DNA of 40,587 nt from a virus (lineage: Duplodnaviria; Heunggongvirae; Uroviricota; Caudoviricetes). The stretch covers positions 1 through 40,587 of the IMG/VR virus record IMGVR_UViG_2563366988_000007, one strand, 5' to 3'. The position numbers were made by a program, and so were the translations under genes. Positions 8,983 through 28,681 of the stretch are shown piece by piece; positions within the stretch are counted from its first letter, which is position 1, and the number at the start of each line of letters is the position of its first letter. The notes beneath the pieces were generated by a model, which was not told where the DNA came from, ran no database searches, and saw only the letters and a program-made list of their open reading frames with translations.

Positions 8983-8994
8983 GTGACATGTCAC
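8983..8994. repeat. 12-bp perfect palindrome GTGACATGTCAC (copy 1 of 3)
   Basis: Exact palindrome; also at 26219 and 28670. Confidence 0.6.
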
Positions 8995-9001
8995 GCTCAC
9001 G

Positions 9002-9142
9002 TTATGACAAGCCTATGTACCCTGCTACGCCAGATAATATCATAATAACTGCAACAGCAAATTCGCCATCGTCAATGATACATTTACGGTTCATAACGCC
9101 AAGTGCAACAAGCGCAAACACAACAAGAATAAAAGCAATCAT
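9002..9142 (-). CDS. Small hydrophobic two-TM protein (46 aa), not in ORF track
   Basis: ATG 10 nt after stop of 9152-11626 gene; translation MIAFILVVFALVALGVMNRKCIIDDGEFAVAVIIMILSGVAGYIGLS. Confidence 0.3.
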   Translation of the reverse strand: MIAFILVVFALVALGVMNRKCIIDDGEFAVAVIMILSGVAGYIGLS

Positions 9143-9151
9143 TTCTCATCC

Positions 9152-11626
9152 TTATTGCGGAGTGACATCCTGTGGTCGCCACCAGTATGTCTGGTTAAAC
9201 TCTTTCTTCGAACGTTGCTCCATTTTACGCAAATAACCTGGTGAAAAATACTCCTGCATCTGGTTAAAGATCATGTGATCGAGAGCCGCCTTCAAGTACC
9301 AGAGATTCGCACCTGGCATCAAACCTTTCCCCAGCTTCACCAGATCACCACCAGTCTGCTCACTCTTCCCTTCCACAGCATTTAACGGTATGCCCTGAGC
9401 AATCTTCACTACGTCATCAACCAGACCAGCTACCGGGCCAAGCATCGACGCCAGCGCGCCGCTTCCGTACCTAGTGTGATCTGACAATAAAAAGTCACCG
9501 TAAAGGCCAAGGCCACCACCTTTCAGTAGAGCACCAAGCCAGAATTTTGCGGCACCTTCTCCTGTCATCTCTCGAGGATTACGACCAGACGCAAGGTCGT
9601 TAAGTTGCTGCGACAAAGCGCCAAGAATGGTCGTACTGGCAATAAACGTCGCAATATATGCCGCACGCCCACCAGCAGACGGCATACCCATAGCGCGTGA
9701 CCAGTGACGCATAACAACCGAGATAGGGAACGATTTAAACAGGAAAACACTTCTCGTTAATTCACCTTTCCATGTTCCACGCTGAATACCAGAACCGGTT
9801 ATCAGTTGCTCACGTGCTCCCGGTGTAATAACAGCCATATCAACTTCTTCAGTTACGGCACCGAGCAGTTTACGCATTGCCTCAAATTTCACGCGTTCAG
9901 GCTCACCAAGATGTTTAACTGCTGAATCAGGGATACGCATAATGCTTTCCGGTGTCAGCATCGTATTATTACCGTTCCCCCAGTCCTCCTGTTTCGCCAG
10001 CTTCCATACGCTCCAGTCTGTGTCAGTAATCCCTTTGCTTTTCAGGATACGAAAATCAGAGTCATCGAGGCTACGAAGGTCTGGTGTCCGTGACACTACT
10101 TCTCCCAGGCTTCCCATCATGGTTACGCCATAGGCGCGCTTGTGCGCATCTGACCATGCTGTAAGCCCACTGGCACGCATTACCGCCGTTGCCGCCCAAC
10201 GAGACACTGACGGCCCCATATTATCCATCGCCCAGCGGTTAACGCTGCCAAGTAGAGATTCCATCGCCAGACCAGCGCGGCGCGCCCGCGCAAGTTCTGT
10301 ACGGTTCGTTGGGTCCATAGCTTCAAGCTGGTTGCGGAATAACTGGTTCATTGGAAGGTTGGTAACCTTCGCAGACAGATACATGGTTCCAAGATCAGAG
10401 AACGATGACAGCAACGCGGATCCGAGTCTGCTGGCAACCAGCCAGTTGCGGATATTGTCAGACCATCGCGCGATGTGCGGATTCGCTACAGGCTGTGTCT
10501 TTCCGGAAATAAAGTTGTACAGATTCTCTGTGTTGTTCGCCAGCCGCTCGACTTTACCGGTTTTACTCGGGTTAGCTGTTGCCGTTTCTGCCTTCACCTG
10601 ATCAAGAAGAGAGCGGAAAACATGATCGGGGTTTGGGCCATATGTTTCCACCAGTGCAATATCTTTACTGATACCTTCCAGGTGACCGACCATGATTTCC
10701 CATAGAGAGCGATCGCCATAAAGTTGCTGATATTGCAGATAGGAATCTGCATCTTTGAAATGTATCTGTCGTGATGCATTACCACGGTTAGCACGTGCGC
10801 CGGAAATTCGCATTCCGGTATCAGTAAGCTTATTCAGCCCACCAGTAGCGATCGTGTTATAAGCCTCTCCAAGAAATGAAGACAACTCGGCATCGTTCAT
10901 CAGTTGTCCATCGGCTCGGATATAATATTTGCGATCCAGCTTACCTATAACATCGCTAACCCACTTATCCTTTGATACTGCCCCAACCTTTTCCATAGAA
11001 TGATGTTGAGGGATCCCCCAGTTTTCGAGATAGCCAATGTCCCCACCAGCATCATTAAACCGGCGGCGCAGCAGCTCTGTAACTTCTCTCCACGCCTTAG
11101 CACCGTTTCTTGCTTTAGCATTGCCAGTATTTTGCCCCCGCATTTCATATACCAGGTCACGTACGCCCGCTTCATCTTCAAACAGACCAAAAAAGCGAGG
11201 ATCAACTGCTTCGAATGCCTCCTGCAATTGACTCAATGCATAATCACGGGTGGCTTTTGTTCTGGATTCAACAGAGAGGAAATTAGATTTACCGTCTGCA
11301 TTAAAAGCTATAGTACGGTTAAGAGCGCCAAGTTTCCCATCAGCCCCTTGATAGCTATTGATAAATTTATCCAATCTCTGACGCGCGGCTATAGTGAGAG
11401 CCACACGACGTTTCTTTAATGCCGCTTCTCGCTGTAATTCTTCAGATGCCAATTGTGCTGCTCGATATAGCCGCTCTGATTCGGAAAGTTGTCTCCACGA
11501 CATCGGGTCATCACGAGCAATGGAGCGCATATTTCGATAAATGCGGTCTTCAATGTTCTGTATTTCTCGCGCCGTTAACGTGCGCTGCGCCGCCTGCTGG
11601 ACCGCTTGTATACATTCCTGTCTCAT
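9152..11626 (-). CDS. Large internal virion/ejection protein
   Basis: 824-aa ORF in virion operon, T7 gp15/16-like position. Confidence 0.55.
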   Translation of the reverse strand: MRQECIQAVQQAAQRTLTAREIQNIEDRIYRNMRSIARDDPMSWRQLSESERLYRAAQLASEELQREAALKKRRVALTIAARQRLDKFINSYQGADGKLGALNRTIAFNADGKSNFLSVESRTKATRDYALSQLQEAFEAVDPRFFGLFEDEAGVRDLVYEMRGQNTGNAKARNGAKAWREVTELLRRRFNDAGGDIGYLENWGIPQHHSMEKVGAVSKDKWVSDVIGKLDRKYYIRADGQLMNDAELSSFLGEAYNTIATGGLNKLTDTGMRISGARANRGNASRQIHFKDADSYLQYQQLYGDRSLWEIMVGHLEGISKDIALVETYGPNPDHVFRSLLDQVKAETATANPSKTGKVERLANNTENLYNFISGKTQPVANPHIARWSDNIRNWLVASRLGSALLSSFSDLGTMYLSAKVTNLPMNQLFRNQLEAMDPTNRTELARARRAGLAMESLLGSVNRWAMDNMGPSVSRWAATAVMRASGLTAWSDAHKRAYGVTMMGSLGEVVSRTPDLRSLDDSDFRILKSKGITDTDWSVWKLAKQEDWGNGNNTMLTPESIMRIPDSAVKHLGEPERVKFEAMRKLLGAVTEEVDMAVITPGAREQLITGSGIQRGTWKGELTRSVFLFKSFPISVVMRHWSRAMGMPSAGGRAAYIATFIASTTILGALSQQLNDLASGRNPREMTGEGAAKFWLGALLKGGGLGLYGDFLLSDHTRYGSGALASMLGPVAGLVDDVVKIAQGIPLNAVEGKSEQTGGDLVKLGKGLMPGANLWYLKAALDHMIFNQMQEYFSPGYLRKMEQRSKKEFNQTYWWRPQDVTPQ

Positions 11627-11631
11627 TTAAT

Positions 11632-13434
11632 TTAACCTCTCAAGAAACACGCCACAGCGACATCAAACAGGCTGGAATCCTGTATTGCCTGCTCACTTTC
11701 CCTGTTCGCTTCATCCAGTACTTCACGCGCGCTGCGCGATTGTGGATTACCATCATCATCCAGCACGGTGATTATCATGTCCGGATATTCAAGCAGCGAG
11801 TCTTCAGCTATACGCAGATCAATATCTCCTGCCGGATCTGCCATCATTTTTTGTTCTGTCTGTTGCAATATCTTACCGGGCTCAAAAGGAGCTACTTCGT
11901 CTGGCGTCCTGACCTCTGCTGTTTTATAGAATGAAACAGCCTGAGCATTAAGTTCACTTTCTGCCTGCTGTCTCCGAGCCAGTTCTGCTCGAGCTTCAAA
12001 AAACTGACCGCCAGGCTCATGCGGTGCCAACGCGTTACGGGAAAATTCCAGGCGTTCTTGTGCCTGCCGGATTCGTTGGTCAATATCCCGAAGTCTGGCC
12101 TGTTTATCTGATCGAGCACGAGACAAAGCTTTACCGCTACCGGCTGGATCTTCTGCAAGAATTTGTGCGCGCTGTTCAGTGAGATTTTCAATAATTCGTT
12201 GGCTATTAGCGATTTCAGACTGGTAAACCTGTCTATCGCCACGCGGCAAAAGCTGCGCGGCCTGTTCTTCAAGCAACCGATTTTCTATAGCGCGCGCCGT
12301 TACTCCATCATCTACAGATGACAGAGCCTCATTAACTGCCTGAGACAGCAGACTCTTGCGTCCAGGAATTTCACTGAAAGATGCAGACTCAACAATGCTG
12401 GCAACGTCTACAGGTCTCCCCTGGCTAACATCAGACATGGCTTTTCGCAGAGCCTGAATGTGCGAATTACGCGAAAGCACGTTGATCGGCACGCCGGGAG
12501 CAATATCAATTTCAGCATGATGAGCGGCATTCGCCGCCAGTGCAGCATCGATATCAACTGGTGAAAAATTTGGTGCGCTTGTAGACTCGCCGCGAGAGTT
12601 AATAAATCTGCCGACACCACCAAACGCCACCCCAAGAACAGCATCAATAGCAATTGCCTGTCGATCCAACACATCATACTGGTTAGCCATTTCGCTATAG
12701 CCACCATCACGAAGCGTTTTTGCAGTAAGCCCACGCTGTGCCATACCGAACGCAATATTTGTACCTGCGGCATAGGCAATATCTGGCGTTGCACGTACTG
12801 CTGTTGCTGCGGCGCGTCGCACTGAACTTTCACCCGTCCGCGCAAGCTGAGCCGCCACACCTTCCGCCAGCGCACCACCAGCACGTAACCCGAGGCTCAT
12901 AGGGATCAGTGTTCCGGCACCAGCAGTAATACCCTGCACTAATCCCGCTTCCTGCGCCGTCCTGAAATCAACACCCTGTGCTGTAAGCCGTTCAAACTCA
13001 GAAAAACCCTGTAGAGAAGTTACCGCCGCAGCACCTCCGACCGGACCACCGAGCGTTGTACCGACAACAGCCTGCCCGCCCATATCGAACAACCCATAAA
13101 GGACCTGCCCGGCGGTTCCGGTTGTCGCGGCATCAGGCGTCAGCCGCTTAACCTGCTGCTCTGCTAGTTTTCTCTGCTCAGCAATGTATGAAACTGAAGT
13201 GTCATTGATCGAGGTGTTTTCGTTAACAAACTGAGCAATCGGGGATACGATTTTATCCATCCCTGCCCATAGCAACTGATCTGGCTTTGCCACCAGCCCG
13301 GAGTACAAACCAGACAATGCCGCTCCTACAGCATTGTCGAAAAAACCAACATCGCTGTTAAAGCCAGCTGGATTTGATGCTGCTTCGTCAAGCTGCTGAT
13401 TCTGGTTTACTGGATTAAGGCCAAAGTAACTCAT
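11632..13434 (-). CDS. Internal virion/ejection protein
   Basis: 600-aa ORF, Gly/Ala-rich N-terminal half, position in virion operon. Confidence 0.55.
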   Translation of the reverse strand: MSYFGLNPVNQNQQLDEAASNPAGFNSDVGFFDNAVGAALSGLYSGLVAKPDQLLWAGMDKIVSPIAQFVNENTSINDTSVSYIAEQRKLAEQQVKRLTPDAATTGTAGQVLYGLFDMGGQAVVGTTLGGPVGGAAAVTSLQGFSEFERLTAQGVDFRTAQEAGLVQGITAGAGTLIPMSLGLRAGGALAEGVAAQLARTGESSVRRAAATAVRATPDIAYAAGTNIAFGMAQRGLTAKTLRDGGYSEMANQYDVLDRQAIAIDAVLGVAFGGVGRFINSRGESTSAPNFSPVDIDAALAANAAHHAEIDIAPGVPINVLSRNSHIQALRKAMSDVSQGRPVDVASIVESASFSEIPGRKSLLSQAVNEALSSVDDGVTARAIENRLLEEQAAQLLPRGDRQVYQSEIANSQRIIENLTEQRAQILAEDPAGSGKALSRARSDKQARLRDIDQRIRQAQERLEFSRNALAPHEPGGQFFEARAELARRQQAESELNAQAVSFYKTAEVRTPDEVAPFEPGKILQQTEQKMMADPAGDIDLRIAEDSLLEYPDMIITVLDDDGNPQSRSAREVLDEANRESEQAIQDSSLFDVAVACFLRG

Positions 13435-15944: not shown

Positions 15945-15956
15945 CTTATTATCCCC

Positions 15957-16496
15957 TTATCGACCGGTTGGAGTGCCAACAGCAGCAGAAATCGGCGCAG
16001 CCTTCTGAGAGAACGGGCTCCACGTTCCGCCGCCCATCTGGTATGCACCGTATGCTTTTAGGGGTGCCGTTAACAAAGTGCTGGTCATCGATGATTTAGC
16101 AGCCGACTGAGCAGCAGCCCCCTGTGCCTGAGCATTCATTCCCTGAACCTGATACCCATATGCCTCACGCTGAGCATTATTCACTGTCGTTAACGCATCA
16201 AGAGTGCCGAACTGAGCATTATCCGCAAAAACATCAAGAGCTGTTCCACTACTTAATTCCGCACCGGTAGCCCCCATAGTGGCCGCCGCAGTGCCTGAGC
16301 GTTGACGCATTTCACGACGACGCTGATCCGCTTCAATATTCCCACGATTGATTGAATCCTGTGCCTGGGCTTCAGCAATCTCAGCATTCCGATCAGCTAC
16401 GGCTGACTGGTATCTTGCCTGCTTGCTCTGGCTGTACATTGATGCGGCTGTGGATGCCACTGTGACTGCAACCAAAGCGATGGCTGGGTTACACAT
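15957..16496 (-). CDS. Internal virion protein (small, Ala/Gln-rich)
   Basis: 179-aa ORF in conserved position after tail tube genes. Confidence 0.45.
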   Translation of the reverse strand: MCNPAIALVAVTVASTAASMYSQSKQARYQSAVADRNAEIAEAQAQDSINRGNIEADQRRREMRQRSGTAAATMGATGAELSSGTALDVFADNAQFGTLDALTTVNNAQREAYGYQVQGMNAQAQGAAAQSAAKSSMTSTLLTAPLKAYGAYQMGGGTWSPFSQKAAPISAAVGTPTGR

Positions 16497-16960: not shown

Positions 16961-19431
16961 CAGAATCCCCCAACAGTAAGGCGAGGAATAACGGCAAGAA
17001 CAGACAGCGGCAACGGGTCAAGCTGACGGATTTTTACACGTCCGTTTTTGCCCCAGTTACTGTCCAGTTTCACTTCTACTTTTCCGGTAGCATCATCAAC
17101 AGGATCATCGTAGAACTCGAATTCACGCTGTGGATATTCGTACCATTTACCGCCGGGCGTAGTCGCCCAGATGCCGCGACTGGCATTCACAACCAGAGTA
17201 ACGGAGGGGATCACCTGTTTTTTGTCCAGCAGCGTTTCCTGTCCGTTAATGTTGATATCCAGTGTTTCGAATTCAGCAGTTATTGGCAGGCCGATGTGCA
17301 CTACAGCCCCCGGAGATTCCAGCGTGACGGCACCTCCGGAAACCACTTTCTGTGGTTCCACGTTCGCATCAGAGAGAATGTTTACGGTCTGGCCTTCAAG
17401 ATGAGACAGGCCTCCAAATGTCCGGCGCGCCATCTGCCAGTTCGTGGTAGCCACATTCCTGAGGGATGGCGGGACGTTCCTGTTAGCACGAACCACTACA
17501 GCGGTATTGCTGGTTACAGAAATGATGTCGCAACGTAATTCTTTTGACACTTCATCGCCAGTATCAGGATCAGTTCCGGTATAAGGGAACTGTAGTTGAG
17601 CACCGATATCACTACTGGTGAAGTACGCACCACCAGAAACACTGATTGTATATTCCGCGCGGTAATCCCATTCGCCAGAACCACCAGTGATGGTCATCGT
17701 TCTGTCAGACGTATTTCTTCCATCATAGCTAAGGCCAGAATCAACAAAGAAAGCATCTTCATCGCTGGTAAATAAACGGCTGGACAGCCGCTCGATGTAT
17801 CTCACTGTTTGCCCGTTAACGGTTCGGTTAACGACGAAATACACCGCATCTTCATTGCCTTCGCTGATACTGCATGTGCTTTCATATTTTCCGGTACTGG
17901 ATTGTGGTGCCCATGCAAAAACCTGCTGATCACGCAAATAGGTCATCACCAGTAATTTACCGTCATCACGAATGCAGAAGGCACTGGAGTAAGGGACAAT
18001 CGAGAAGCACCAGTCAACAATGCTGTGCTTCTGAAAAAGATGATTGGCAAGGATGGTCAGGTCGTTCCCCTGATAGCCGTCAACATCGAATGAGTAGGCC
18101 AGATCACGGACAACGCTGCCTTTCTCCTGGACGAACAGAGCAATATTCGCCACGGCAATTGGCGGGACGTTGCTTGAGCCATTTGATCCCTGAGAGCTGA
18201 ATGCAAATGATGATGGGGTTAACACTTTGTTCTGGTCGCCGGTGATGACGTACTCACCTCCGGAAGTCAGCGCCACCAGCGAACCGACATCAATCAGGTG
18301 GCGGATCTCATTAACCTGACGCCCGGCATAGGTGTAGATAATTCTGTCGTCATCCTGCGTAGGATTGCTTTTGCCAAAATCCTTATAATCCCCGGTACGG
18401 CTGGCCCAGATAGTCTGAGGGAACGCAGTCGATGCGGCGAAGTAAAGACGTTGTTGATAATAAACAACAGTGCCAGGATAACCATTAACACTGTTCCAGG
18501 CATATTTAGCCCATTTATAGCTGGCATTATCCTCGCCAACGACCTGCGAAGGGATATAGGAAATCACCTCAGCAGTTGCAGTAGTGCCATTTGCAGCAGT
18601 GATACGGGCAATGCCAAAACCACTGTGCAGATACTCCCACTCAATGCCAGTATCATCATCACCGGATCCGCCCCAGCCATCCCATGATGTGCCTTCTGTA
18701 TGCGAAGGGCGCAAAGTACCTGTTTTGCCTGCTGTAACGGCGCGATAGTAGTTACTGTCTGCACGGCGAATATCGCCAATCGACGTACTCTTACTGGTTT
18801 CCCATACCGGCACAGAATCCACTGCAGGCTGTTCCAGATAGAACAATTTGCCTACCTGCTCCGCGCCAAAAATAGAGGCGCTTGCCGTTAACGTAATTGT
18901 CCCGGTGCTGGCGCTGGCATAAACCGTCACTGACTCGTCAATATTGATATCTTCAAATGGCCCGTTCTTCGTTACCACATCAACCAGTTGCCAGTTGTCA
19001 TGCGCATAGCGGCGCAACTCTTTCGGCGGGTATGCCGGATGAACCAGCGTAAGCACGTCTGCGCTTTGCGTGAATTTAATTCGGAACAGATCGGCTTCAG
19101 TATATGGCGTGGAAATTTCATAAATAACATTGCTGCTGTTCAGCACCAACGCACCATCTTTGATAACGCGCATGTACTGGTGTCCGAACTCCAGAGCATA
19201 AGTCTGAACCGTCGAGAACTGGAACGGGATCAGGCGGCATTTCCGATTTGGGTATTTGGCGGCACCGACAAAACGCGTACCAGGTCGATTCTCAACTCCG
19301 CCATACTGCCGCACGATAAAGTTATCGCACTTGCGCAATGCCACCTGGTACTTCGCCATGTCAATACGACCGTACAACGACGGTCCAATCTCACCACCGG
19401 CAAAGCTGGGCTGGATCCAACTGATAGCCAT
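16960..19431 (-). CDS. Tail tubular protein B-like (nozzle)
   Basis: 823-aa ORF following a roughly 200-aa partner, as T7 gp11/gp12 pair; size and order. Confidence 0.5.
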   Translation of the reverse strand: MAISWIQPSFAGGEIGPSLYGRIDMAKYQVALRKCDNFIVRQYGGVENRPGTRFVGAAKYPNRKCRLIPFQFSTVQTYALEFGHQYMRVIKDGALVLNSSNVIYEISTPYTEADLFRIKFTQSADVLTLVHPAYPPKELRRYAHDNWQLVDVVTKNGPFEDINIDESVTVYASASTGTITLTASASIFGAEQVGKLFYLEQPAVDSVPVWETSKSTSIGDIRRADSNYYRAVTAGKTGTLRPSHTEGTSWDGWGGSGDDDTGIEWEYLHSGFGIARITAANGTTATAEVISYIPSQVVGEDNASYKWAKYAWNSVNGYPGTVVYYQQRLYFAASTAFPQTIWASRTGDYKDFGKSNPTQDDDRIIYTYAGRQVNEIRHLIDVGSLVALTSGGEYVITGDQNKVLTPSSFAFSSQGSNGSSNVPPIAVANIALFVQEKGSVVRDLAYSFDVDGYQGNDLTILANHLFQKHSIVDWCFSIVPYSSAFCIRDDGKLLVMTYLRDQQVFAWAPQSSTGKYESTCSISEGNEDAVYFVVNRTVNGQTVRYIERLSSRLFTSDEDAFFVDSGLSYDGRNTSDRTMTITGGSGEWDYRAEYTISVSGGAYFTSSDIGAQLQFPYTGTDPDTGDEVSKELRCDIISVTSNTAVVVRANRNVPPSLRNVATTNWQMARRTFGGLSHLEGQTVNILSDANVEPQKVVSGGAVTLESPGAVVHIGLPITAEFETLDININGQETLLDKKQVIPSVTLVVNASRGIWATTPGGKWYEYPQREFEFYDDPVDDATGKVEVKLDSNWGKNGRVKIRQLDPLPLSVLAVIPRLTVGGF

Positions 19432-20039
19432 CAGGACAACCTCGCAATGGTAAACTCGTCAACCGGTGGCAGTGGTTCCTGTGATTCATTCTGGCTATGC
19501 GAGCCAGCACTAAGAATCACGCGATTGTACATATTGAGGGCAAACGTACCGAGGTCTGCATTCCCAGTCAGCGCCATGTTAATAGCTGCAGCAAGACGCC
19601 AGGCCAACGCCTCCATAAAAATGGCATCAAACATGTTCACATCTGAAACGCGAGAGACATACTTGAGCCATGCCTGCGGCTGGTCTGTGTAGATCAACTT
19701 TCCTGTTCCGTTGGTGTCTGCACCAACTTCGTACTGAACGCGCATTGCTGCTGTTGGATTGCGTACACCAGGAAGCATAATTTCAGTAATGCGCAGACAA
19801 TCGGACGGGTACTGGTACGCATATTCCCAGTCAGGCGGTGGATTGTTCGTATCTGCAAGCGCCACGCGTTTGGTAGCAAAGTTCCAGTCAAAATCAGAAA
19901 GCACAGCATCACGGCAGGCCTCAAAGTGCAGCGAACATTCCCCTGCTTCCTTGCTGGCTTCCGTCAGGCTGTTAATGCTGCGGCTGTTGCCAATATTGGA
20001 CAGCGCACGATTACAGATCTCTACTACAGAGGCCATCAC
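19431..20039 (-). CDS. Tail tubular protein A-like (adapter)
   Basis: 202-aa ORF immediately upstream of 823-aa gene. Confidence 0.45.
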   Translation of the reverse strand: MMASVVEICNRALSNIGNSRSINSLTEASKEAGECSLHFEACRDAVLSDFDWNFATKRVALADTNNPPPDWEYAYQYPSDCLRITEIMLPGVRNPTAAMRVQYEVGADTNGTGKLIYTDQPQAWLKYVSRVSDVNMFDAIFMEALAWRLAAAINMALTGNADLGTFALNMYNRVILSAGSHSQNESQEPLPPVDEFTIARLS

Positions 20040-21244: not shown

Positions 21245-22237
21245 TTACACCACGCGGGCTTCTGTTTCCAGAAGCGCATCAGTTTCACGGATTGGTACAC
21301 CACGGAATGAAGTCCACCACTCGCCTTCTGTCTCTTTTACGCTGATAGCCAGAGATGTTTTCTCCAGAGACTGCAGATCAAGAGCCTGGCCTACAGTGCG
21401 GTTCATGTAGAACACCGGGCGGCCCATGCCACGGTTTGGAATGCGATGTAGTGCTTTAACCATCAACTTCGCAATATTTGCGGCAGAGGATGGTTCTGAA
21501 AGATTGCTGACATCGATGTTTGCAATGCGAACAACATAACGCCAGTCACGCAGAGCAAGTCCGTTGTCCCATTTGTAATGGGTACGGTAGCCTTCGTACT
21601 TGCCGCCATTAGCATCTTCCAGTGTCACCTGGCCTTTATCTTCCATCTGGATGCCAGCCTTCTGCCCTTTCGGGAAGATGCCATGCACGGTGTTTTCGCC
21701 CCACACCACTAACCAGATTGAGGTGTTATCTGTACCCGTGCCACCAGCATCAATGATGTTCTGAGCATTACCCGCAGACAGGCTGGAATAGCGGGAGGAC
21801 AGTCCCATAAACTGCTGAGGGTTAACGCTGGAATCACCATAAAACAGCGTCTGCGCCATCTGCTGATTCATCGCTTCAATAAATGCGCGGTCTTCAGACA
21901 GGCGGAATTCGGCGGTATTGCCGTTCAGATCAGCCAGTGACTTATCGACTTCCGCATAGGTTTCCAGCATGCCAACGGAATCGGTTACCTGCACTGTGGT
22001 TGATTTGCTTGGCTGTACGCCATAGTTCAGCAAACGCCAGGTAGCTGAAGGTAAACCAGAACGAATGGTGGTTCGGTGTCCGGTAGGAAGGTTCCCTTCG
22101 ACAAAAGGCATATCCTGAAGGATCGGGTTAGTTTGACCGAGAAGCTCGATAATCTTATCGACTTTCCCGTTTGGATCGACGCGCTTACCCCAGTCAGCCA
22201 GCGTCAGCGCAGTTAAGCCTTTAACAGCCATTGTCAT
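21245..22237 (-). CDS. Major capsid protein
   Basis: 330-aa ORF after scaffold, typical size and position. Confidence 0.75.
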   Translation of the reverse strand: MTMAVKGLTALTLADWGKRVDPNGKVDKIIELLGQTNPILQDMPFVEGNLPTGHRTTIRSGLPSATWRLLNYGVQPSKSTTVQVTDSVGMLETYAEVDKSLADLNGNTAEFRLSEDRAFIEAMNQQMAQTLFYGDSSVNPQQFMGLSSRYSSLSAGNAQNIIDAGGTGTDNTSIWLVVWGENTVHGIFPKGQKAGIQMEDKGQVTLEDANGGKYEGYRTHYKWDNGLALRDWRYVVRIANIDVSNLSEPSSAANIAKLMVKALHRIPNRGMGRPVFYMNRTVGQALDLQSLEKTSLAISVKETEGEWWTSFRGVPIRETDALLETEARVV

Positions 22238-22245
22238 TTCCTCTC

Positions 22246-22947
22246 TTATTTGCCATAGAGCACTTCGGCCGCACTACGCTGGCCTTCATTACCACCGGTG
22301 ACCATGCCATCTTCAGACATCGCCTTTCCGATTTTCACGAACGTTTTGACCAGATCAGGGTGATTACCCAGCCCGGTGGTGTTCAGATATTCTTTGAGTT
22401 CAGGTGTCCCGAACTGGTCAAGCGCACGCTGTGCGGCGCTAAGGTTAGAAATCAACTTGTCGCCACCGATTTCTTTGTCGGCTTTTACATCCGCAGCCCA
22501 CTGCTCGGTTGTTTTCTGCCAGGCTTCTGCCTGGCGCTGCTGAACACCTGCCAGAATCTTCGGATAAGCATCAACCAGCTTTTGCGCTTGCTCGTTGGTC
22601 AGGTTTAGTTCTCGCGCCACCGGCTCGAATTCCTTCAACGCTTCTGTATCCAGCTCTACGCCTTCGGCAGCCTGAAACTCGTACTTTTCAGGCGCACCCT
22701 CTGGTTTATCGCCGTCCTTTTTTTCATCCTGCTTATCGTTTTCAGGCTTTTTGTCATCAGCAGGTTTATCGCCATCAGCAACAGGTTGTGGCTTATCACC
22801 TTCCTGTTGTGATGGATCACCAACTGGAGCAGGGTTATCACCTGCAGGCGCTGACGGTTCTGACGCAGCCGGAGCTGCTCCACCATCGACTGGTTGCTCA
22901 TTGCAAATACGGCGATACAGCAAACGCTCAAATAAATTCATGATCAC
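22246..22947 (-). CDS. Scaffolding protein
   Basis: 233 aa, acidic, Pro/Ala/Glu-rich low-complexity middle, helical C-terminus, between portal and capsid. Confidence 0.5.
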   Translation of the reverse strand: MIMNLFERLLYRRICNEQPVDGGAAPAASEPSAPAGDNPAPVGDPSQQEGDKPQPVADGDKPADDKKPENDKQDEKKDGDKPEGAPEKYEFQAAEGVELDTEALKEFEPVARELNLTNEQAQKLVDAYPKILAGVQQRQAEAWQKTTEQWAADVKADKEIGGDKLISNLSAAQRALDQFGTPELKEYLNTTGLGNHPDLVKTFVKIGKAMSEDGMVTGGNEGQRSAAEVLYGK

Positions 22948-23240
22948 TCCTGTTCACTGGCCTCTTTGGCCATCTTCAAATACTGTTCAGGGCAATGCGC
23001 CATAACGCGCTGAAACAGTTCCAGCGCCAGATTGCGTTGCCCCTCATTAAATGCCATTGCCATAGCGTCCATCGGTGAGATAGCGGAAAACACACGGCCT
23101 TTCTCCAGCACCGACCAGACAACGCGACGCCCCTGTTCACTGCTCATGACAAAGCGAATGTCATCAATTTCACGCTGCGCCATGTCACGTTGCTTACGGG
23201 CGTTTTCTTCTTTCAGTTGATCGTCTTCGTAATCTGTCAT
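22944..23240 (-). CDS. Small head-morphogenesis protein
   Basis: 98-aa ORF, overlapping stop/start with portal and scaffold. Confidence 0.45.
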   Translation of the reverse strand: MTDYEDDQLKEENARKQRDMAQREIDDIRFVMSSEQGRRVVWSVLEKGRVFSAISPMDAMAMAFNEGQRNLALELFQRVMAHCPEQYLKMAKEASEQE

Positions 23241-24922
23241 TGTGATTGCCCACCCTGACCACTAACTGCATTCGCCATAGCTGACAAAACACTCGGATCC
23301 GAAGTTTTAGCTTCACTTAGCGTCTTGGCACCCTGTGCCGCCGCCATCCCCATCGCCATCATTTGTTGCTGCTGTTGTTGCTGTGCCCGTTGCTGGCGAG
23401 CCTGCTCAACCTGTTCCTGCGGAACAATGACGGTTGGAGACACTCCGGACATATCAGCGAATGCATCGATCGCCTGATCAACGTTGAGTTTGTCGAGAGC
23501 TTCTGGTTTCGCTTGCGCAAGTTGACCAATGAAGTTGACCGTAGACGCCAGACTGGACAGGCCGATAGACTTCTGCGCCTGAGCCATGACGGAAATGTAT
23601 TCGACCTTCAGGGGCATACCTTCCATCGCGTCAGGCGGTGGCGGCAGCATGTTTTTACGCACCATCATCGAGAAAGCGCGGTCAATGAGAGGATTAAGAC
23701 ATTCGTCGTTCAGACGCTCCAGAACCGGCCCCAACATCAGAAGTTTTTCTTCTTTCATTTCGATCACCGCTTCAACAGGCATCGAGCGGGTATTGATGTT
23801 CTGCAACATCATGAACAGATCGACAAAGTAGGCGCTGTTAATGATTTGACGGGTGTCCTGAATGTCTGCCACCAAATCTGCTGTACTGGGGTTAACCAGA
23901 TAAGCAGGCCTGAAACCATCCTGACCAGTAATCTGATCGATATACGTGATGTCGCCAGGAAGAAGGGAGGCACGCTGATTCTTGAGGGAAGTCGGAGCAA
24001 CCATCGGCGGATTGGTGGCTTTATCAATCAACTGCGACTTGCGCTTCTGGAGAAGCTGCAATGCCTTAACAGGTCCAAGCGCCAGCATACCCGGGCATGA
24101 TGATCCATAAACATCTTCGCCGTTAACTTCCCAGCGCGGAGCCATAATTGGAAACTCATCGAATCCGGACTCACGCAACAACTTGTCGTTATCGCCACCA
24201 ACCTCGTAATAAACCGATTTGAATGGCTTGTTCTTGCTATCCAGCTTCGATGTATCGCGGTCAATGTTCGGGTAAACCGAATGCATCACTTCAATCCACT
24301 TCTCGTAGGTGCCGCTTTCCCACATGCTTTTTACGGATTCGCTGACGTTATTTAGCCCGAACTCCTGAACAAGCTGACGAACAGTCATAGAGAACTTGCG
24401 AAAACAGGTGTCCACACTGCCACGAGGTGAGTTAGCCAGGTAGTAACTGCCTATCGGGAATGGCATTGTGCGAATGATGTCCTCGTCATCCTCCAGCACC
24501 GCCATTGCACCAGTGCTGTATGTGCCGAGGCTTCCGTATAACTGCGGAAGAGACTGGTAGAGATTCGACTTATTGAACATATCGTTCATGCGGTTCTGCA
24601 CCGCCTCGAGCCACAACTTAACAGGACCATAATCCATCATTTCAGGATCTGGCGTAGCCAGGCGAAACCACGGACGCGCAGGGCTTGTGATGCCTGACAT
24701 CATGCCGCTGGCGAGAGTGCGCGCCGCCATAGTCCCGGTCGAATCAATAATGCGTGTATTGCGTCGATCGTTACGGTTGACTTCAGAAGTCAGAAAGCGG
24801 GAACCACGCGGGTTGATGTAATCACTCAACTCGCGCCAGTGCGGCTCGAACGACTGACGCTCGCTTTCAAGTTGTGCGAACTGTTTGTTCAATCGCTCTT
24901 TAGTTGTTTCCGCCATTTCCAT
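23237..24922 (-). CDS. Portal protein
   Basis: 561-aa ORF directly after terminase block; poly-Q C-terminal tail. Confidence 0.75.
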   Translation of the reverse strand: MEMAETTKERLNKQFAQLESERQSFEPHWRELSDYINPRGSRFLTSEVNRNDRRNTRIIDSTGTMAARTLASGMMSGITSPARPWFRLATPDPEMMDYGPVKLWLEAVQNRMNDMFNKSNLYQSLPQLYGSLGTYSTGAMAVLEDDEDIIRTMPFPIGSYYLANSPRGSVDTCFRKFSMTVRQLVQEFGLNNVSESVKSMWESGTYEKWIEVMHSVYPNIDRDTSKLDSKNKPFKSVYYEVGGDNDKLLRESGFDEFPIMAPRWEVNGEDVYGSSCPGMLALGPVKALQLLQKRKSQLIDKATNPPMVAPTSLKNQRASLLPGDITYIDQITGQDGFRPAYLVNPSTADLVADIQDTRQIINSAYFVDLFMMLQNINTRSMPVEAVIEMKEEKLLMLGPVLERLNDECLNPLIDRAFSMMVRKNMLPPPPDAMEGMPLKVEYISVMAQAQKSIGLSSLASTVNFIGQLAQAKPEALDKLNVDQAIDAFADMSGVSPTVIVPQEQVEQARQQRAQQQQQQQMMAMGMAAAQGAKTLSEAKTSDPSVLSAMANAVSGQGGQSQ

Positions 24923-24930
24923 GACTCCGG

Positions 24931-25137
24931 TTACTGACCAAGCAGCGTTTTACCGCTGGTATTAGCGGTTGATGTGTCGCCCTGAGAACCGGTAAGCAGC
25001 GTAGAACTACGACCAGCAGCAGCGCGACGGCGACGTGTTTCTTCGTCGCGGGCATCAACAACGGCGGCATCCTGCTCCTGTGGTGCTGCCTGAACTTCTG
25101 GTGTTGCAGGCACTGATGGTGAGCTACCCATGCACAT
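24931..25137 (-). CDS. Possible small low-complexity protein upstream of portal
   Basis: 68-aa ORF, weak SD, Ala/Thr/Ser-rich; could be non-coding. Confidence 0.25.
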   Translation of the reverse strand: MCMGSSPSVPATPEVQAAPQEQDAAVVDARDEETRRRRAAAGRSSTLLTGSQGDTSTANTSGKTLLGQ

Positions 25138-25227
25138 ATCAATGACTCCGTACGCAATTAAATTATTACCAATTTAACCACATATGATTTATTTATCGTA
25201 GAAGGTTGACATTTAACGCGTTAATTA

Positions 25228-25242
25228 TTACCTTTCAGGTAA
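25228..25242. promoter_or_regulatory. Operator-like palindrome TTACC-N5-GGTAA (ttacctttcaggtaa) preceded by TTGACA
   Basis: Identical to 6618 site; TTGACA at 25206-25211. Confidence 0.5.
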
Positions 25243-25564
25243 CCAAAGGGCTCATTCTGGTTACTAACCTGACTGGCTTGTCGTTAAATTAAACAGGTGG
25301 AGTGAGCTTTTATTTTGAGCAGTACGGCGTATGGCACATGCGCCGATAGCGGTCTGGATACGTTTAAGGGGCACCCTCCCTTGCTCGGGCAAACGAACCA
25401 GGTAGCCGGAATGTGCAAGTCGAGCGGTTTTATTCCGCGCACGGGGATTCACCATCCCGGCGATTCGATGTGACGCCTCGGAAGAGACGAGGGTACAACG
25501 ATGAGAGCATTTATGGAGCCGCGACAAAGTGTGGCGCCTTAACAGGCTAAGTGCTCTCAGCGTT

Positions 25565-25641
25565 GTGGCATTAGCTCAGTTGGACAGAGCAACCGCCTTC
25601 TAAGCGGTTGGTCGCAGGTTCGAATCCTGCATGCCACGCCA
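25565..25641 (+). tRNA. tRNA-Arg, anticodon UCU
   Basis: Cloverleaf folded by hand: acceptor GTGGCAT/ATGCCAC, D-arm GCTC/GAGC, anticodon stem ACCGC/GCGGT with loop CTTCTAA, T-arm GCAGG-TTCGAAT-CCTGC, discriminator G, encoded CCA. Confidence 0.85.
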
Positions 25642-25684
25642 GAATCACGCCTAAGGACCGTGATGCCAGAAGTTCCAGGTGCTT

Positions 25685-25727
25685 GGCGGTGATAGTTTCC
25701 CTTGAAGGACTATCACCGCCCTTTTTA
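25685..25727 (+). terminator. Intrinsic terminator downstream of tRNA (12-bp stem ggcggtgatagt/actatcaccgcc plus T-tract)
   Basis: Read directly. Confidence 0.5.
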
Positions 25728-25804
25728 CAGCAGGACGCCATTGCGATGACTTCATGCTGTAAACCCGTACAGCCACGGAAGGCATAACTCATTGCTTCCA
25801 GTTC

Positions 25805-25828
25805 GCCCGGTTCGCCGGGCATTTTTTT
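25805..25828 (+). terminator. Hairpin with UUCG tetraloop (gcccgg-ttcg-ccgggc) followed by T7
   Basis: Read directly; abuts SD of gp49-like gene. Confidence 0.4.
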
Positions 25829-25839
25829 AAGGTGAGATT

Positions 25840-26214
25840 ATGAACGACCAGCAAATCGAAAAAGAAATCGTTGAGAAAGGCAAAACCGCTCCGCGTGTAA
25901 CACCCGAGAAAATTGAAGGCCTCATTTGCAGTGAGCATTTTTTCACTGCTGCGCAGGGTGACCACCAGGCTAAAGAAGATGACCTTATTTATAATCCGGA
26001 GCCTTATGTCGAAGCCACCCCTGATGCTCTGCACCTTCTCACTTTCTGCGTATTGGTACTGAAGAATGGCTTCACCGTTACCGGAGAGAGTGCCTGTGCA
26101 AGCCCGGAAAACTTTGATGCAGAAATTGGTCGGAAGATTGCCCGGCAGAATGCTGTAAACAAAATCTGGATGCTCGAAGGTTACTTGCTGAAGCAGAAGT
26201 TAAGCGAGCAATAA
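25840..26214 (+). CDS. Gp49-like phage protein (N4 gp49 / Sf6 gp66 family), moron
   Basis: Motifs LICSEHFF, GFTVTGESACASPENFD, IGRKIARQNA; SD aaggtgag. Confidence 0.55.
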   Translation: MNDQQIEKEIVEKGKTAPRVTPEKIEGLICSEHFFTAAQGDHQAKEDDLIYNPEPYVEATPDALHLLTFCVLVLKNGFTVTGESACASPENFDAEIGRKIARQNAVNKIWMLEGYLLKQKLSEQ

Positions 26215-26218
26215 CACC

Positions 26219-26230
26219 GTGACATGTCAC
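26219..26230. repeat. 12-bp perfect palindrome GTGACATGTCAC (copy 2 of 3)
   Basis: Exact; flanked by AACACC as at copy 3. Confidence 0.6.
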
Positions 26231-26232
26231 AA

Positions 26233-26262
26233 ACAGCCAGCCGATGAGCTGGCTTTGTTTTA
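26233..26262 (+). terminator. Intrinsic terminator (cagccagc-cgatga-gctggct plus ttgtttt)
   Basis: Read directly after gp49-like gene. Confidence 0.45.
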
Positions 26263-26304
26263 TCCTCACCAGAGGATATCAGCAGTATTATCCCCACCAG
26301 CGGA

Positions 26305-27780
26305 TTAAGCATAAGGGTCATAATCCGTTATGGCCCTTCCCTGCTGGCTTTGCTGTCCAGGTATATTTATGCGTTTCGAGACCGGGAAAGCAAACGTCAG
26401 CAGTAGCGCATCGCCTTTACCAGGAGAACGCCCAAGTCGCTCTTTGATATCTTCCTTCGGTTCGATAACGATTTTACCGTCCACTCGAACTTTGTACTCT
26501 GCCGCCGACAGGTCGTCTGCTGTTTCCTGGTCATCCAGCATGCCGCCCAGCCTCAGCCATGTCTTGCATGAATTGAACATCTCCCCACGCTTGTTGAGCA
26601 TCTGCGGGTCAGTAGACGCGCCACCGAACGGAACAAGTTGCCATGTACGACCCCAGCCGTCACCGATTGACTTCAAACCGGTTCCGTAACCGAAGTCGAT
26701 GAACACCGCGTCAGCCTGATACTGGTCTTCAAAGTCAGCGATACGCTTCGCCATAATCAGATCGTCGGTAGTCTTGTTGCCAGTCCACAGCACCTTACTG
26801 TGTAGCCCCTGCCGCAGGTATATCACAGCGTCATCAACGCCGGAGTATGCCGGGTCAACGCCGATTATCACCGGAGCATGTGCAACCTGCGCAGCGGTTA
26901 CCACCCGTTTCATTGCCTCGTCAGTAAGACCGGTAGGGATAAACTGCAATTCAGATGCATCAGGGAATATGCCACGCACACGGATTTTAACGAAGTCGCT
27001 GTCTTCCCCGTAGTCATCAACCCATTTCTGCAACTGCTGTTTGTTAGTGCCTTCCACCGTCCGGCTGTCAATCTGCGCAGTTTTCCAGCGGTGTTTATAT
27101 TTGCGGAAACATTCGCGAAAACGCCCGGTGTTACGTGTAGGGTTTCCGAACGCCACCCAGATAATCTCAGTGTCTTCGTCCGTAAGCGCACCCTCGGCAA
27201 CTTCCCACACCAGATCCGCAATGTTCGACGCTTCATCAAACACCACGATGATGCGTTTGCGCTCGTTGTGTAGTCCGGCGAATGCCTCGGTGTTGTGCTC
27301 AGACCAGGGTATTGCGTCAGCCCGCCACCGCTTGTCGTGCCCTAGGTCATTGCTGTACATCGCGGTAGCGGTACAGGTAAACCAGTCTTTCGTGATAGCA
27401 AGGTTCGACCACTTGATAATTTCCGGCCAGGTCTTCGTTCGTAGCTGGTTGTCGGTGTTGGCGGTCACCACGACCTTACAATCCTCGCAAGTGGACATGC
27501 CCCAGTTGATCAGCATTGAGATGAATGCGGATTTACCAATACCGTGACCAGAAGCGCGTGCCAGCATAAGCGGCTGATAGCGCGTCTCTGGATTCTGCAG
27601 GTGATCACGTATCTCTCGGAACGCATCAGCCTGCCACTGACGTGGGCCGGTGGCATGTGCCAGTTCAGTCCCCTCTTCCCCCCATGGGAACGCATAGAGG
27701 GCATAGCCAAGCGGATCGTGAGTGAACCCTGCAATATCCTCGATTAACTGCTCTTCAGGAGATAACGCTGTATCTGTCAC
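26305..27780 (-). CDS. Terminase large subunit
   Basis: Walker A-like ASGHGIGKS, ATPase plus C-terminal nuclease layout, 491 aa. Confidence 0.85.
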   Translation of the reverse strand: MTDTALSPEEQLIEDIAGFTHDPLGYALYAFPWGEEGTELAHATGPRQWQADAFREIRDHLQNPETRYQPLMLARASGHGIGKSAFISMLINWGMSTCEDCKVVVTANTDNQLRTKTWPEIIKWSNLAITKDWFTCTATAMYSNDLGHDKRWRADAIPWSEHNTEAFAGLHNERKRIIVVFDEASNIADLVWEVAEGALTDEDTEIIWVAFGNPTRNTGRFRECFRKYKHRWKTAQIDSRTVEGTNKQQLQKWVDDYGEDSDFVKIRVRGIFPDASELQFIPTGLTDEAMKRVVTAAQVAHAPVIIGVDPAYSGVDDAVIYLRQGLHSKVLWTGNKTTDDLIMAKRIADFEDQYQADAVFIDFGYGTGLKSIGDGWGRTWQLVPFGGASTDPQMLNKRGEMFNSCKTWLRLGGMLDDQETADDLSAAEYKVRVDGKIVIEPKEDIKERLGRSPGKGDALLLTFAFPVSKRINIPGQQSQQGRAITDYDPYA

Positions 27781-28373
27781 TGATTGCCATCCTGACGTTC
27801 TTTCAGTCTCTTCCTGGCTGCCGCTATGCGATCAGCAATTGTCACATTCACATTAACATCCAGGCGTTCTTTGAATGCGTTGACGTCGACGTGCTTACCA
27901 ATCAGTTCGAGGTTCTTCACCTTGTCAGGCCATTTAATTTTTTTGAGGATTGTCTCTATCGAATCCTCGTTCATGTTCATGATGGTCGATGACAGATCAA
28001 AGCCACTAAGCGTAGTGCGCCAGATTTTCGGCCACTCGCGGATTGGCTTAAGGCTCCCATCGTCGTTGAGGATGTCGATCACGTCCATCTGGTCGATCTC
28101 CACCAGGCGCATGAGAACGTAATCAGCACTGACGCGCATTCGTTTGTTGCGCTCTTCCATCAGCTCGGCAATCCGTTTTTGAATGCGTTCATCGCGCATC
28201 ATGAGACTGGCTTTAACTGCCGCTGTATTTGGGGAGAATCCTGCGTTAATCGCAGCCTGAGTCTGGTTTTCAGGCGTTTGGATGTATGACTGGCAATAAG
28301 CCTCCTGCATTGCTGTTAGTGGCTTAAATTGCGTTGATTTGCGTTTATAGGTTTTAGGTTCAGCAGGCATCAT
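27777..28373 (-). CDS. Terminase small subunit (start chosen at MMPAEP; ORF extends to 28451)
   Basis: HTH-like motif TQAAINAGFSPNTA typical of small terminases; overlaps TerL start. Confidence 0.65.
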   Translation of the reverse strand: MMPAEPKTYKRKSTQFKPLTAMQEAYCQSYIQTPENQTQAAINAGFSPNTAAVKASLMMRDERIQKRIAELMEERNKRMRVSADYVLMRLVEIDQMDVIDILNDDGSLKPIREWPKIWRTTLSGFDLSSTIMNMNEDSIETILKKIKWPDKVKNLELIGKHVDVNAFKERLDVNVNVTIADRIAAARKRLKERQDGNQ

Positions 28374-28447
28374 AACCACCGTGGTAATAGTTACCGTTGT
28401 GGTAATAGTACCATGCAAAATAAAGCCGCCATAGTTGGCGGCAGTAT

Positions 28448-28660
28448 TCAAAGTCCATCAAATTCATCGTAAAAACTCTCGTCAAGATACCCTTCCCATT
28501 TACCGCGAATGAAAATTACATCCTCGCCGCAAGGGTGCTGACTGTCGATAACTATATCCCTCCTGGCGCAACCATACTTATGCATGAGAAATTTAACCTC
28601 TTTCGGAAAATTTGCTGAGTTATCTCTCATATCTTCAAGGTCGTAGCGTATTTTTGGCAT
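28448..28660 (-). CDS. Hypothetical protein (70 aa from ATG with AGGTG SD; ORF extends to 28681)
   Basis: SD gaaggtg 5 nt upstream of ATG at 28660. Confidence 0.4.
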   Translation of the reverse strand: MPKIRYDLEDMRDNSANFPKEVKFLMHKYGCARRDIVIDSQHPCGEDVIFIRGKWEGYLDESFYDEFDGL

Positions 28661-28669
28661 AACACCTTC

Positions 28670-28681
28670 GTGACATGTCAC
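28670..28681. repeat. 12-bp perfect palindrome GTGACATGTCAC (copy 3 of 3)
   Basis: Exact; immediately 5-prime of SD of 28448-28660 gene. Confidence 0.6.

Follow-up and report, generated by a model that had tools for sequence, protein, structure and literature searches.

Palindromic YGTGAC-NN-GTCACR sites at gene and operon ends of an epsilon15-like phage and their association with a PHROG 536 protein

The genome of a tailed phage (IMG/VR record IMGVR_UViG_2563366988_000007, positions 1 to 40,587; the whole 40,587-nucleotide stretch is called the window here) carries the perfect 12-bp palindrome GTGACATGTCAC at three junctions between transcription units, and we asked what this repeat is, which protein may read it and what it may do there. 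The window is an epsilon15/phiV10-like E. coli phage. Exact matching located the 12-mer three times, at 8983, 26219 and 28670, while none of 100 dinucleotide-preserving shuffles of the window contained a single exact copy. This bears out the original prediction that a palindrome repeated in this way lies far above chance; by our own estimate a perfect 12-bp palindrome of any sequence would turn up three times in 40.6 kb with a probability of about 1e-5. Allowing up to two mismatches added one site only, at 23177 within a coding region, so the three copies are not surrounded by a cloud of degenerate ones. The sites and their neighbours are as follows.

8965..8982, minus strand: intrinsic terminator hairpin AGGCCGC-TTTC-GCGGCCT with T tract (terminator scan and sequence)
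8983..8994, no strand: palindrome copy 1 (site C), tGTGACATGTCACg (exact match)
9002..9142, minus strand: gene for a 46-aa membrane protein, equivalent of phiV10 p21 (sequence; phiV10 annotation of the homologous 19345-19485)
25840..26214, plus strand: 124-aa moron gene, PF13876, N4 gp49 / Sf6 gene 66 family (Pfam E=2.4e-34)
26219..26230, no strand: palindrome copy 2 (site B), cGTGACATGTCACa (exact match)
26235..26254, plus strand: intrinsic terminator hairpin AGCCAGC-CGATGA-GCTGGCT with T tract (terminator scan)
28425..28442, minus strand: intrinsic terminator GCCGCC-AACTAT-GGCGGC with T tract, ending the early-right operon (terminator scan)
28448..28660, minus strand: 70-aa gene, PHROG 1541, function unknown (PHROG match)
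28670..28681, no strand: palindrome copy 3 (site A) (exact match)
28678..29016, minus strand: gene for a 112-aa protein, candidate binder of the site, epsilon15 gp49 / phiV10 p55 / N15 gp46 family, PHROG 536

Analysis of these contexts indicated that copy 1 is flanked by the stop of the 46-aa gene, the final gene of the virion operon, which lies 7 nt before it, and by the terminator of that operon, whose stem (8982..8965 on the minus strand) directly abuts the palindrome. Copy 2 begins 4 nt past the TAA stop of the PF13876 gene and is followed after 4 nt by the stem of a bidirectional terminator shared with terL. Copy 3 overlaps the TGA stop (28680-28678) of the 112-aa gene, the last gene of the early-right operon, and lies just 5' of the Shine-Dalgarno sequence of the 70-aa gene. 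The junctions marked in the window are those of the early operon into the terminase, of the terminase with a moron and of the virion operon with a moron; two of the three copies lie between convergent genes, with some 0.9-1 kb between them and the closest late promoter or operator. The contexts given in the original prediction were essentially right and are refined here by the terminator scan and the stop-codon positions: copy 3 had been placed correctly with respect to the Shine-Dalgarno sequence, while its overlap with the upstream TGA had gone unseen. Comparison of the site A flanks of epsilon15, phiV10 and the window showed that in this lineage the 70-aa gene was inserted exactly after copy 3 and before the terminator, which is homologous to the epsilon15 terminator located 22 nt after site A in that phage. 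The flank AACACC, described earlier as shared by copies 2 and 3, is real but out of register, standing 3 nt from copy 3 and 0 nt from copy 2, and was rejected as a part of the motif.

In phiV10, epsilon15 (about 80% DNA identity), SPN1S and Tyrion the 12-mer stands at the three corresponding junctions, with diverged flanks. The equivalents of site C begin at 19493 in phiV10, 19517 in epsilon15, 19662 in SPN1S and 20377 in Tyrion, and those of site B at 2262, 2142, 2174 and 2702, respectively; conservation at equivalent positions, put forward beforehand as a check, is therefore present. Over a wider set of loci the 12-mer proved to be one local version of a 14-bp conserved site, YGTGAC-NN-GTCACR. 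Its arms and 2-bp spacing do not vary, while the two central bases do (AT, GC, CA, AC), and as a rule position -1 is a pyrimidine and position +1 a purine. The pattern GTGAC-N2-GTCAC occurred 261 times in 2.79 Mb of related loci, while spacings of 0, 1, 3, 4 and 6 were absent from the same 2.79 Mb and a spacing of 5 occurred once. Next to homologs of the 112-aa protein at 40-45% identity cTGTGACGCGTCACAg directly follows a TAG stop, and GTGACCAGTCAC and GTGACACGTCAC are further variants. Temperate phages of widely differing kinds carry about three copies per genome (range 1-3). The site is found in both orientations with respect to transcription, and within genes as well; some of the copies kept within coding sequence have all synonymous positions fixed. 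Strong purifying selection acts on the site, among related phages and unrelated ones alike.

Across 143 unique contexts, which are not phylogenetically independent, 85% of the sites lay within -14 to +5 nt of an ORF end, against 15% of random positions, 41% were at most 30 nt from a terminator (random, 5%), and the order ORF end, site, terminator was found in 34% (random, 0.5%). In 77 of these contexts the TGA inside the site serves as the stop codon. In other phages some copies are located inside genes or just upstream of start codons and not at terminators.

The site travels with one protein family. Of 80 close IMG/VR loci, 77 have it at the stop codon of the PHROG 536 gene, overlapping or adjoining that codon; most loci of a more diverse set show the same, and this association persists to approximately 35-40% protein identity. 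Phages whose homologs are 34-68% identical contain three sites (N15, ZF40 and Vibrio phage K303) or one (a Yersinia P2-like phage); N15, ZF40 and the Yersinia phage each have a site at the end of the PHROG 536 gene, and in K303 one lies 226 nt downstream of that gene. Ten complete phage genomes that encode the protein, comprising podo-, sipho- and myoviruses of Enterobacterales and Vibrio, contained 26 sites against 0.39 expected, an enrichment of about 65-fold. No site was found in lambda or P22, both of which lack the protein, or in 125 kb of sampled E. coli K-12, a result that also speaks against the 12-mer being a repeat of the host. When five unrelated motif-bearing phages were compared, the PHROG 536 protein was the only ORF family common to all, and 31 of 93 short IMG/VR pieces fetched by the DNA pattern alone also encoded it. 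Exceptions were the L058-type loci, where the protein is encoded but its gene does not end at a site, and Klebsiella phage ST16-OXA48phi5.3, which has one site, providing the stop of cro and the ATG of the following gene, and no detectable PHROG 536 homolog. Since the site co-occurs with the PHROG 536 protein and one copy lies at the end of its own gene, this protein is most likely the binder, a pairing deduced from co-occurrence and position.

Homologs of the PHROG 536 protein occur in epsilon15-like, lambdoid, N15-like, P2-like and Vibrio phages whose hosts are Enterobacterales, Vibrio and Aeromonas, and the family carries the label 'transcriptional regulator'. Its layout consists of a basic N-terminal helix with invariant Arg residues, a core weakly resembling the ribbon-helix-helix (RHH) fold and a Cys-rich C-terminal module. 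The structural neighbours, all weak matches, are RHH DNA-binding proteins, and the MatP-matS complex is among the two best of these weak matches. Proteins of the RHH class (CopG/Arc/MetJ) pair an N-terminal strand with two helices in an intertwined dimer. Residues 46-106 of the family align with nearly all of F-plasmid TraR (hhalign probability 48%, pairwise E 1.8e-4, 59 columns), covering a helix, CxxC, a loop, a Cys and the C-terminal helix; in a profile search of PDB sequences TraR was found at E 0.4. None of the 32 members scanned matched PF01258 (the DksA/TraR zinc finger), even at E<=10, and no similarity to DksA was seen beyond CxxCG. The TraR/DksA proteins, which are secondary-channel factors of RNA polymerase with homologs in phages too, differ in having a CxxC-x17-CxxC finger behind a long helix, whereas the fourth Cys (the Zn ligand) of PHROG 536 is displaced outside the CxxC position, and a 45-residue N-terminal module stands where the free tip of TraR would enter the polymerase.

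We consider it probable that the site is bound by a symmetric dimer of the PHROG 536 protein and marks gene and operon ends as a boundary or roadblock. The 112-aa protein would be the final product of the early-right operon, and its dimer would then bind YGTGAC-NN-GTCACR. Binding at gene and operon boundaries may reinforce terminators and limit read-through, and as a by-product the conserved site plus terminator could serve as a recombination joint for moron swaps. Recognition of duplex DNA is indicated by the invariant arms, which show no compensatory changes, and by an RNA hairpin of only -1.2 kcal/mol. The boundary or roadblock function is suggested by the position of the sites at gene 3' ends, often right before intrinsic terminators; it is the weakest step of the proposal, since copies elsewhere are found inside genes or upstream of start codons. 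The original prediction of a late-regulator site is thus upheld as regards a regulator, given a site under selection that co-occurs with one family of DNA-binding type, and loses the word 'late': N15 has this protein and site alongside Q, a P2-like phage has them alongside Ogr, and the distance of two of the window copies from the nearest late promoter or operator also disfavours it.

Stoperators of cluster A mycobacteriophages, bound in lysogens by an HTH immunity repressor (L5 gp71), are asymmetric, orientation-dependent 13-mers present in about 24-30 copies per genome, and they reportedly block elongating RNA polymerase. Like them, the present sites, here with a predicted binder, are short, scattered through a phage genome in small gaps at gene junctions and frequently overlap stop or start codons. 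They differ in being perfect palindromes, in numbering about three per genome, and in their candidate binder, which is an early protein of the lytic cycle and not the immunity repressor, so that the resemblance would be one of placement, not of sequence or binder. As the product of an early operon the PHROG 536 protein should be missing from lysogens, and a stoperator-like role in prophage silencing was rejected. The Rep operators of epsilon15 and SPC32H (ATTACC-N5-GGTAAT), annotated in epsilon15, are likewise palindromic and dispersed over the same genomes, including positions before late operons, but have another sequence, lie in promoter regions rather than gene ends and belong to another protein, an HTH repressor. 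Nine such dyads were found in the window (at 6618, 8050, 25228, 28391, 32448, 32510, 34834, 35546 and 35608), none overlapping a 12-mer site.

The closest likeness in sequence is matS, the 13-bp MatP site of the E. coli Ter macrodomain, GTGAC-RNY-GTCAC (PMC3603311). Both have the same inverted 5-bp arms, a degenerate centre and dispersed low-copy sites in gamma-proteobacterial DNA. MatP contains an RHH domain. The phage spacer is 2 bp instead of 3, the 3-bp form being absent from the window as well as from the related loci; the phage sites lie at gene ends of phage or prophage genomes and not at the chromosomal terminus; and the Cys-rich module takes the place of the coiled coil of MatP. The same binder might therefore have an architectural job, in which bridging or tethering of the roughly three sites would organise, position or condense phage DNA in the manner of MatP/matS or ParB-type systems, the gene-end positions arising only because binding there spares promoters and coding sequence. 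We hold this to be rather unlikely, although it would agree with the matS arms, with the low and constant number of sites despite differing transcription programmes and late regulators, and with a site beside the binder's own gene, which is typical of parS/parB-type systems; the taxa with MatP also largely overlap the hosts of the family. It has to face the lack of sequence similarity between the PHROG 536 protein and MatP (hhalign probability 0.16%, BLASTP E=12, a Smith-Waterman score no better than shuffles), the absence of a ParA partner from the window and a coupling to stop codons and terminators tighter than mere promoter avoidance needs. That host MatP itself binds the sites, or is titrated by them, so that the phage or prophage joins or disturbs the Ter-macrodomain system, is very improbable. 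The matching arms and host range would fit, but the spacer is 2 bp in all 261 copies, the strict linkage to the PHROG 536 gene is left unexplained and prophages are reported to avoid matS (PMC3603311).

It is improbable, too, that palindrome and terminator are mainly a recombination joint, a 'boundary sequence' conserved by repeated copying and not by protein reading. Such a joint would account for the site B type cassette, terminator-TT-palindrome-GGYG-TTA, which abuts at least five unrelated moron genes in other loci, for the at least five unrelated sequences that follow site A across loci, for the 70-aa gene inserted there in the window, and for the break in homology with relatives near site C. 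Copying explains neither the in-gene copies with all synonymous positions fixed nor the Y/R flank rule, and the arms and spacing are fixed around a free centre in N15, a P2-like phage and a Vibrio siphovirus, whose flanks have nothing in common. We give hardly any credence to an RNA element, that is, a 3'-UTR hairpin or self-complementary 12-mer acting in mRNA stability, processing or RNA-RNA pairing: three transcription units carry the site in their transcripts, at the 3' end and just ahead of terminator hairpins, and its intermolecular self-duplex would be stable (-19 kcal/mol), but the 12-mer hairpin is weak and not consistently formed in context, the arms lack compensatory changes and the site lies in either orientation to transcription, also inside genes. 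Intrinsic terminators and REP-like stem-loops differ in forming a stable GC-rich hairpin in the transcript, the real terminators here being separate, adjacent hairpins. The readings as a packaging site or a methyltransferase target, both raised in the original prediction, or as a restriction target are extremely unlikely and find no support in the comparative data. One copy does lie upstream of terS, yet a pac site is a single recognition site in or next to terS of headful packagers, and the motif is dispersed in about three copies per genome, in cos phages (N15, P2-like) just as in the headful epsilon15-like ones. The window form does include CATG and ACATGT, and these phages encode methyltransferases, but a target of this kind should show a constant short core in every copy and depend on a cognate methyltransferase. 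The central dinucleotide varies (GC, CA/TG, AC), which destroys CATG, and the site is retained in the Yersinia P2-like phage, for which no methyltransferase is annotated.

A bolder version, which we regard as unlikely, is that PHROG 536 is a site-tethered transcription factor of a new kind, at work in many temperate phages of Enterobacterales and Vibrionales, or that protein and site together are a phage-borne counterpart of MatP/matS for organising phage DNA. In the former case the N-terminal module would read a matS-like site from which one central base pair has been removed, making it orthogonal to host MatP; this reader would be fused to a TraR-like zinc module engaging RNA polymerase, and the protein, parked at gene and operon ends, might decide locally whether polymerase stops or reads through.

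If the proposal is confirmed, a cis element and a testable activity would be assigned to a protein family now 'hypothetical', a second, repressor-independent layer of control or organisation would be added to epsilon15-type genomes, and the frequent exchange of morons at exactly these junctions would be explained. The near-identity to matS raises the question of cross-talk with, or deliberate insulation from, the host chromosome-organising system. YGTGAC-NN-GTCACR provides a practical annotation marker for operon ends and moron insertion points in these prophages. The segment of the window carrying the regulator gene and site A matched 1548 of 5426 complete E. coli genomes by megablast, mostly as partial matches.

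Analysis of the window revealed that the 12-bp palindrome GTGACATGTCAC is present exactly three times (8983, 26219 and 28670). Not a single copy turned up in 100 dinucleotide-preserving shuffles, and a search allowing two mismatches returned one extra, unrelated site within a coding region. The window, whose late genes are on the minus strand, represents an E. coli phage or prophage of the epsilon15/phiV10-like (Uetakevirus) kind, and the three copies mark the early-right operon/terminase, terminase/moron and virion operon/moron junctions. The original prediction had placed them at three operon boundaries, and sequence, terminator and Pfam checks indicated that these contexts were correct; one feature had been missed, namely an additional overlap between copy 3 and the TGA with which the upstream 112-aa gene ends. 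An intrinsic terminator comes after every copy in the direction in which the preceding gene is read. The features concerned are the following.

8983-8994: copy 1 (site C)
8982..8965: terminator, stem adjoining copy 1; ends the virion operon
25840-26214 (+): PF13876 moron gene
26219-26230: copy 2 (site B)
26235-26254: terminator, 4 nt past copy 2; ends the PF13876 moron on one strand and terL on the other
28442..28425: terminator after copy 3, with an inserted 70-aa gene in between
28448-28660 (-): 70-aa gene, PHROG 1541, function unknown, exactly between copy 3 and the terminator
28670-28681: copy 3 (site A)
28678-29016 (-): 112-aa gene, PHROG 536

The 70-aa PHROG 1541 gene is absent from phiV10 and epsilon15, and the epsilon15 homologue of the 28442..28425 terminator directly follows the palindrome, 22 nt after it. 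Copies 2 and 3 share, on the same side and with a 3-nt offset, the 8-mer GGTGTTAT in the late-strand reading (26231-26238 and 28659-28666). At copy 2 the TTA within the 8-mer provides the moron's stop codon in the opposite-strand reading, and at copy 3 the 8-mer forms the SD and ATG of the inserted 70-aa gene; the sharing may be a scar left by this insertion. A tRNA-Arg gene (anticodon TCT; 25565-25641, +) lies in the variable terL-portal region on the strand opposite to the late genes, overlapping the mechanical ORF 25571-25822 (-), PHROG 4647.

The 12-mer was found at the same three junctions in phiV10, epsilon15, SPN1S and Tyrion with diverged flanks, the DNA of epsilon15 sharing only some 80% identity with that of the window, and TL-2011b carries two copies. 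The phiV10 copy at site A (39101), GTGACATGTTAC, has one arm mismatch where almost all relatives are exact, and reflects either natural loss of the site or an error in sequencing. The palindrome is a real, strongly selected cis element. Across 2.79 Mb of related loci GTGAC-N2-GTCAC occurred 261 times, arm spacings of 0, 1, 3, 4 and 6 never, and a spacing of 5 once. The central dinucleotide was variable, AT being far commoner than AC, GC or CA, and a pyrimidine occupied position -1 in 98% of half-sites; the consensus, YGTGAC-NN-GTCACR, is wider than the 12-mer. Since the arms are invariant without compensatory change, the centre is unconstrained and the RNA hairpin contributes just -1.2 kcal/mol, the sequence patterns point to recognition as duplex DNA by a symmetric dimer and not as an RNA structure. 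All three N15 sites (28550, 33237 and 39269) read CGTGAC-CA-GTCACG, with an asymmetric centre in differing orientations, and all three ZF40 sites read TGTGACATGTCACA. Within a genome, centre and flank thus appear to have become uniform, which may reflect co-evolution with the variant of the protein that the genome encodes.

The gene whose stop is overlapped by copy 3 is a member of PHROG 536 (annotated as 'transcriptional regulator'), and its counterparts are epsilon15 gp49, phiV10 p55 and N15 gp46. The site was located at the stop codon of the close homologue's gene in 77 of 80 IMG/VR loci, and likewise in most of 69 more diverse loci. In Serratia-type phages, whose homologues show 40-45% identity, cTGTGACGCGTCACAg comes directly after a TAG stop, so the stop codon itself is not what explains the conservation. 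The L058-type phages are an exception, encoding the protein with no site at its gene end and three sites elsewhere. Homologues at 34-68% identity were found in cultured phages of quite different kinds.

Sites in cultured phages encoding a PHROG 536 homologue
N15, telomere siphovirus: 3 sites; nearest overlaps the stop of gene 46
ZF40, Pectobacterium myovirus: 3 sites; nearest 3 nt past the homologue's gene
vB_YenM_201.16, Yersinia P2-like phage: 1 site; overlaps the homologue's stop
K303, Vibrio siphovirus: 3 sites; nearest 226 nt downstream of the homologue's gene end

Ten complete genomes encoding a PHROG 536 protein contained 26 sites versus 0.39 expected; both the protein and the motif are missing from lambda and P22. 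When the ORFs of the window, N15, ZF40, the Yersinia phage and K303 were compared all against all by BLASTP, PHROG 536 proved to be the sole ORF family present in at least four of the five; it was found in all five and not in lambda or P22. When the collection was scanned in the reverse direction with the 14-mer GTGACATGTCACAA as query pattern, 31 of the 93 short IMG/VR pieces found by this DNA pattern alone encoded a PHROG 536 protein. The best reading of the site is as a target bound by a widespread, uncharacterised phage protein. The one palindrome of Klebsiella phage ST16-OXA48phi5.3 (7537) supplies the TGA of a putative cro and the ATG of the next gene. Despite this single site no PHROG 536 homologue was found in the 29-kb prophage record, so the copy might be acted on by a regulator that another prophage encodes.

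The PHROG 536 family has a basic, strongly conserved N-terminal helix (AERKxAQRxR, R8 invariant), then a helical core followed by invariant Cys79 and Cys82 and a nearly invariant Cys99; the protein is likely DNA-binding, and probably dimeric and zinc-containing. The 112-aa protein gave no significant family in Pfam, NCBIfam or PADLOC and no informative Foldseek match in PDB or BFVD. No similarity to DksA was found, a similarity to TraR is a lead only, and P22 NinX, although of equal length, is unrelated to the family. The last bases of the upstream early gene 29009-29290 are shared with the 112-aa gene, which therefore looks translationally coupled and is the final product of the early operon.

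The arms of the phage site are identical to those of matS, GTGAC-RNY-GTCAC, which is reported as avoided by prophages (PMC3603311), but the phage site has one central bp fewer without exception. Membership of the MatP/matS system was rejected because no sequence similarity between the 112-aa protein and MatP could be detected, homology being rejected by hhalign, BLASTP and a shuffle test. K303 carries, besides its three 12-bp sites, a sequence that fits the matS consensus over its full 13 bp (GTGACACCGTCAC, 19491).

The annotated repressor operators of epsilon15, ATTACC-N5-GGTAAT, form a different dyad. Nine 15-nt matches to the epsilon15/SPC32H-type TTACC-N5-GGTAA dyad were found in the window, at 6618, 8050, 25228, 28391, 32448, 32510, 34834, 35546 and 35608. 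As these differ from the palindrome in sequence and position, the palindrome constitutes a second, independent site system. Copies of the dyad closely precede terS (28391), precede the portal operon (25228) and occur in pairs in the immunity region; the immunity repressor thus appears to act directly on the late operons, in line with the epsilon15 annotation.

Comparison of 143 unique contexts with random positions showed an ORF end within -14 to +5 nt of the site in 85% (15% random), a terminator within 30 nt in 41% (5% random) and the order ORF end, site, terminator in 34% (0.5% random). The site contains TGA and ATG, which repeatedly serve as stop codon, start codon or both. In the favoured reading the protein-bound site would act as a boundary element that reinforces terminators and restricts read-through. 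An architectural role of the protein-site pair, similar to that of MatP or ParB, is a real rival, since other phages have copies within PHROG 2479, a conserved early-left gene, where all synonymous positions are fixed, further copies lie after cII or cro, and about three sites occur per genome regardless of the phage transcription programme. The original prediction had proposed a late-regulator site, which is rejected because the protein coexists with Q in N15 and with Ogr in a P2-like phage, and because a distance of about 0.9-1 kb separates sites B and C from the closest promoter under Rep control. Its packaging site is rejected in view of about three copies per genome and of the motif in cos phages, and its methyltransferase target in view of a CATG centre that is the variable part and a site kept without an annotated methyltransferase. 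A host repeat is not indicated either, the motif being absent from a sampled 125 kb of E. coli K-12.

The cassette terminator-TT-site-GGYG-TTA adjoins at least five unrelated moron genes, and what comes after site A is any of at least five unrelated sequences, so the conserved site and terminator also behave as a gene-exchange joint; this is regarded as a consequence of the site's conservation, not its cause.

No description of the element was found in the searchable literature, including full text for the 12-mer, and nothing relevant in that on epsilon15/phiV10 terminators or palindromes, N15 gp46 or ZF40 repeats. The system belongs to a known category, dispersed phage operator systems, among which its gene-end placement, breadth over phage types and near-identity to matS are unusual.

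The palindromes within PHROG 2479 (function unknown) are located at 3709 in locus L127 (gene 3482-3805, -), 5125 in ZF40 (gp08) and 1985 in L058. They encode Cys-Asp-Met-Ser, and both in lambdoid prophages and in the myovirus ZF40 the 12-mer is exact in homologues with differing flanking codons. In L058, a different phage type, two copies (15501 and 16115) flank one 190-aa gene inserted between the scaffold/protease-like and major capsid genes; the 15501 copy overlaps the upstream stop codon and a terminator follows the 16115 copy.
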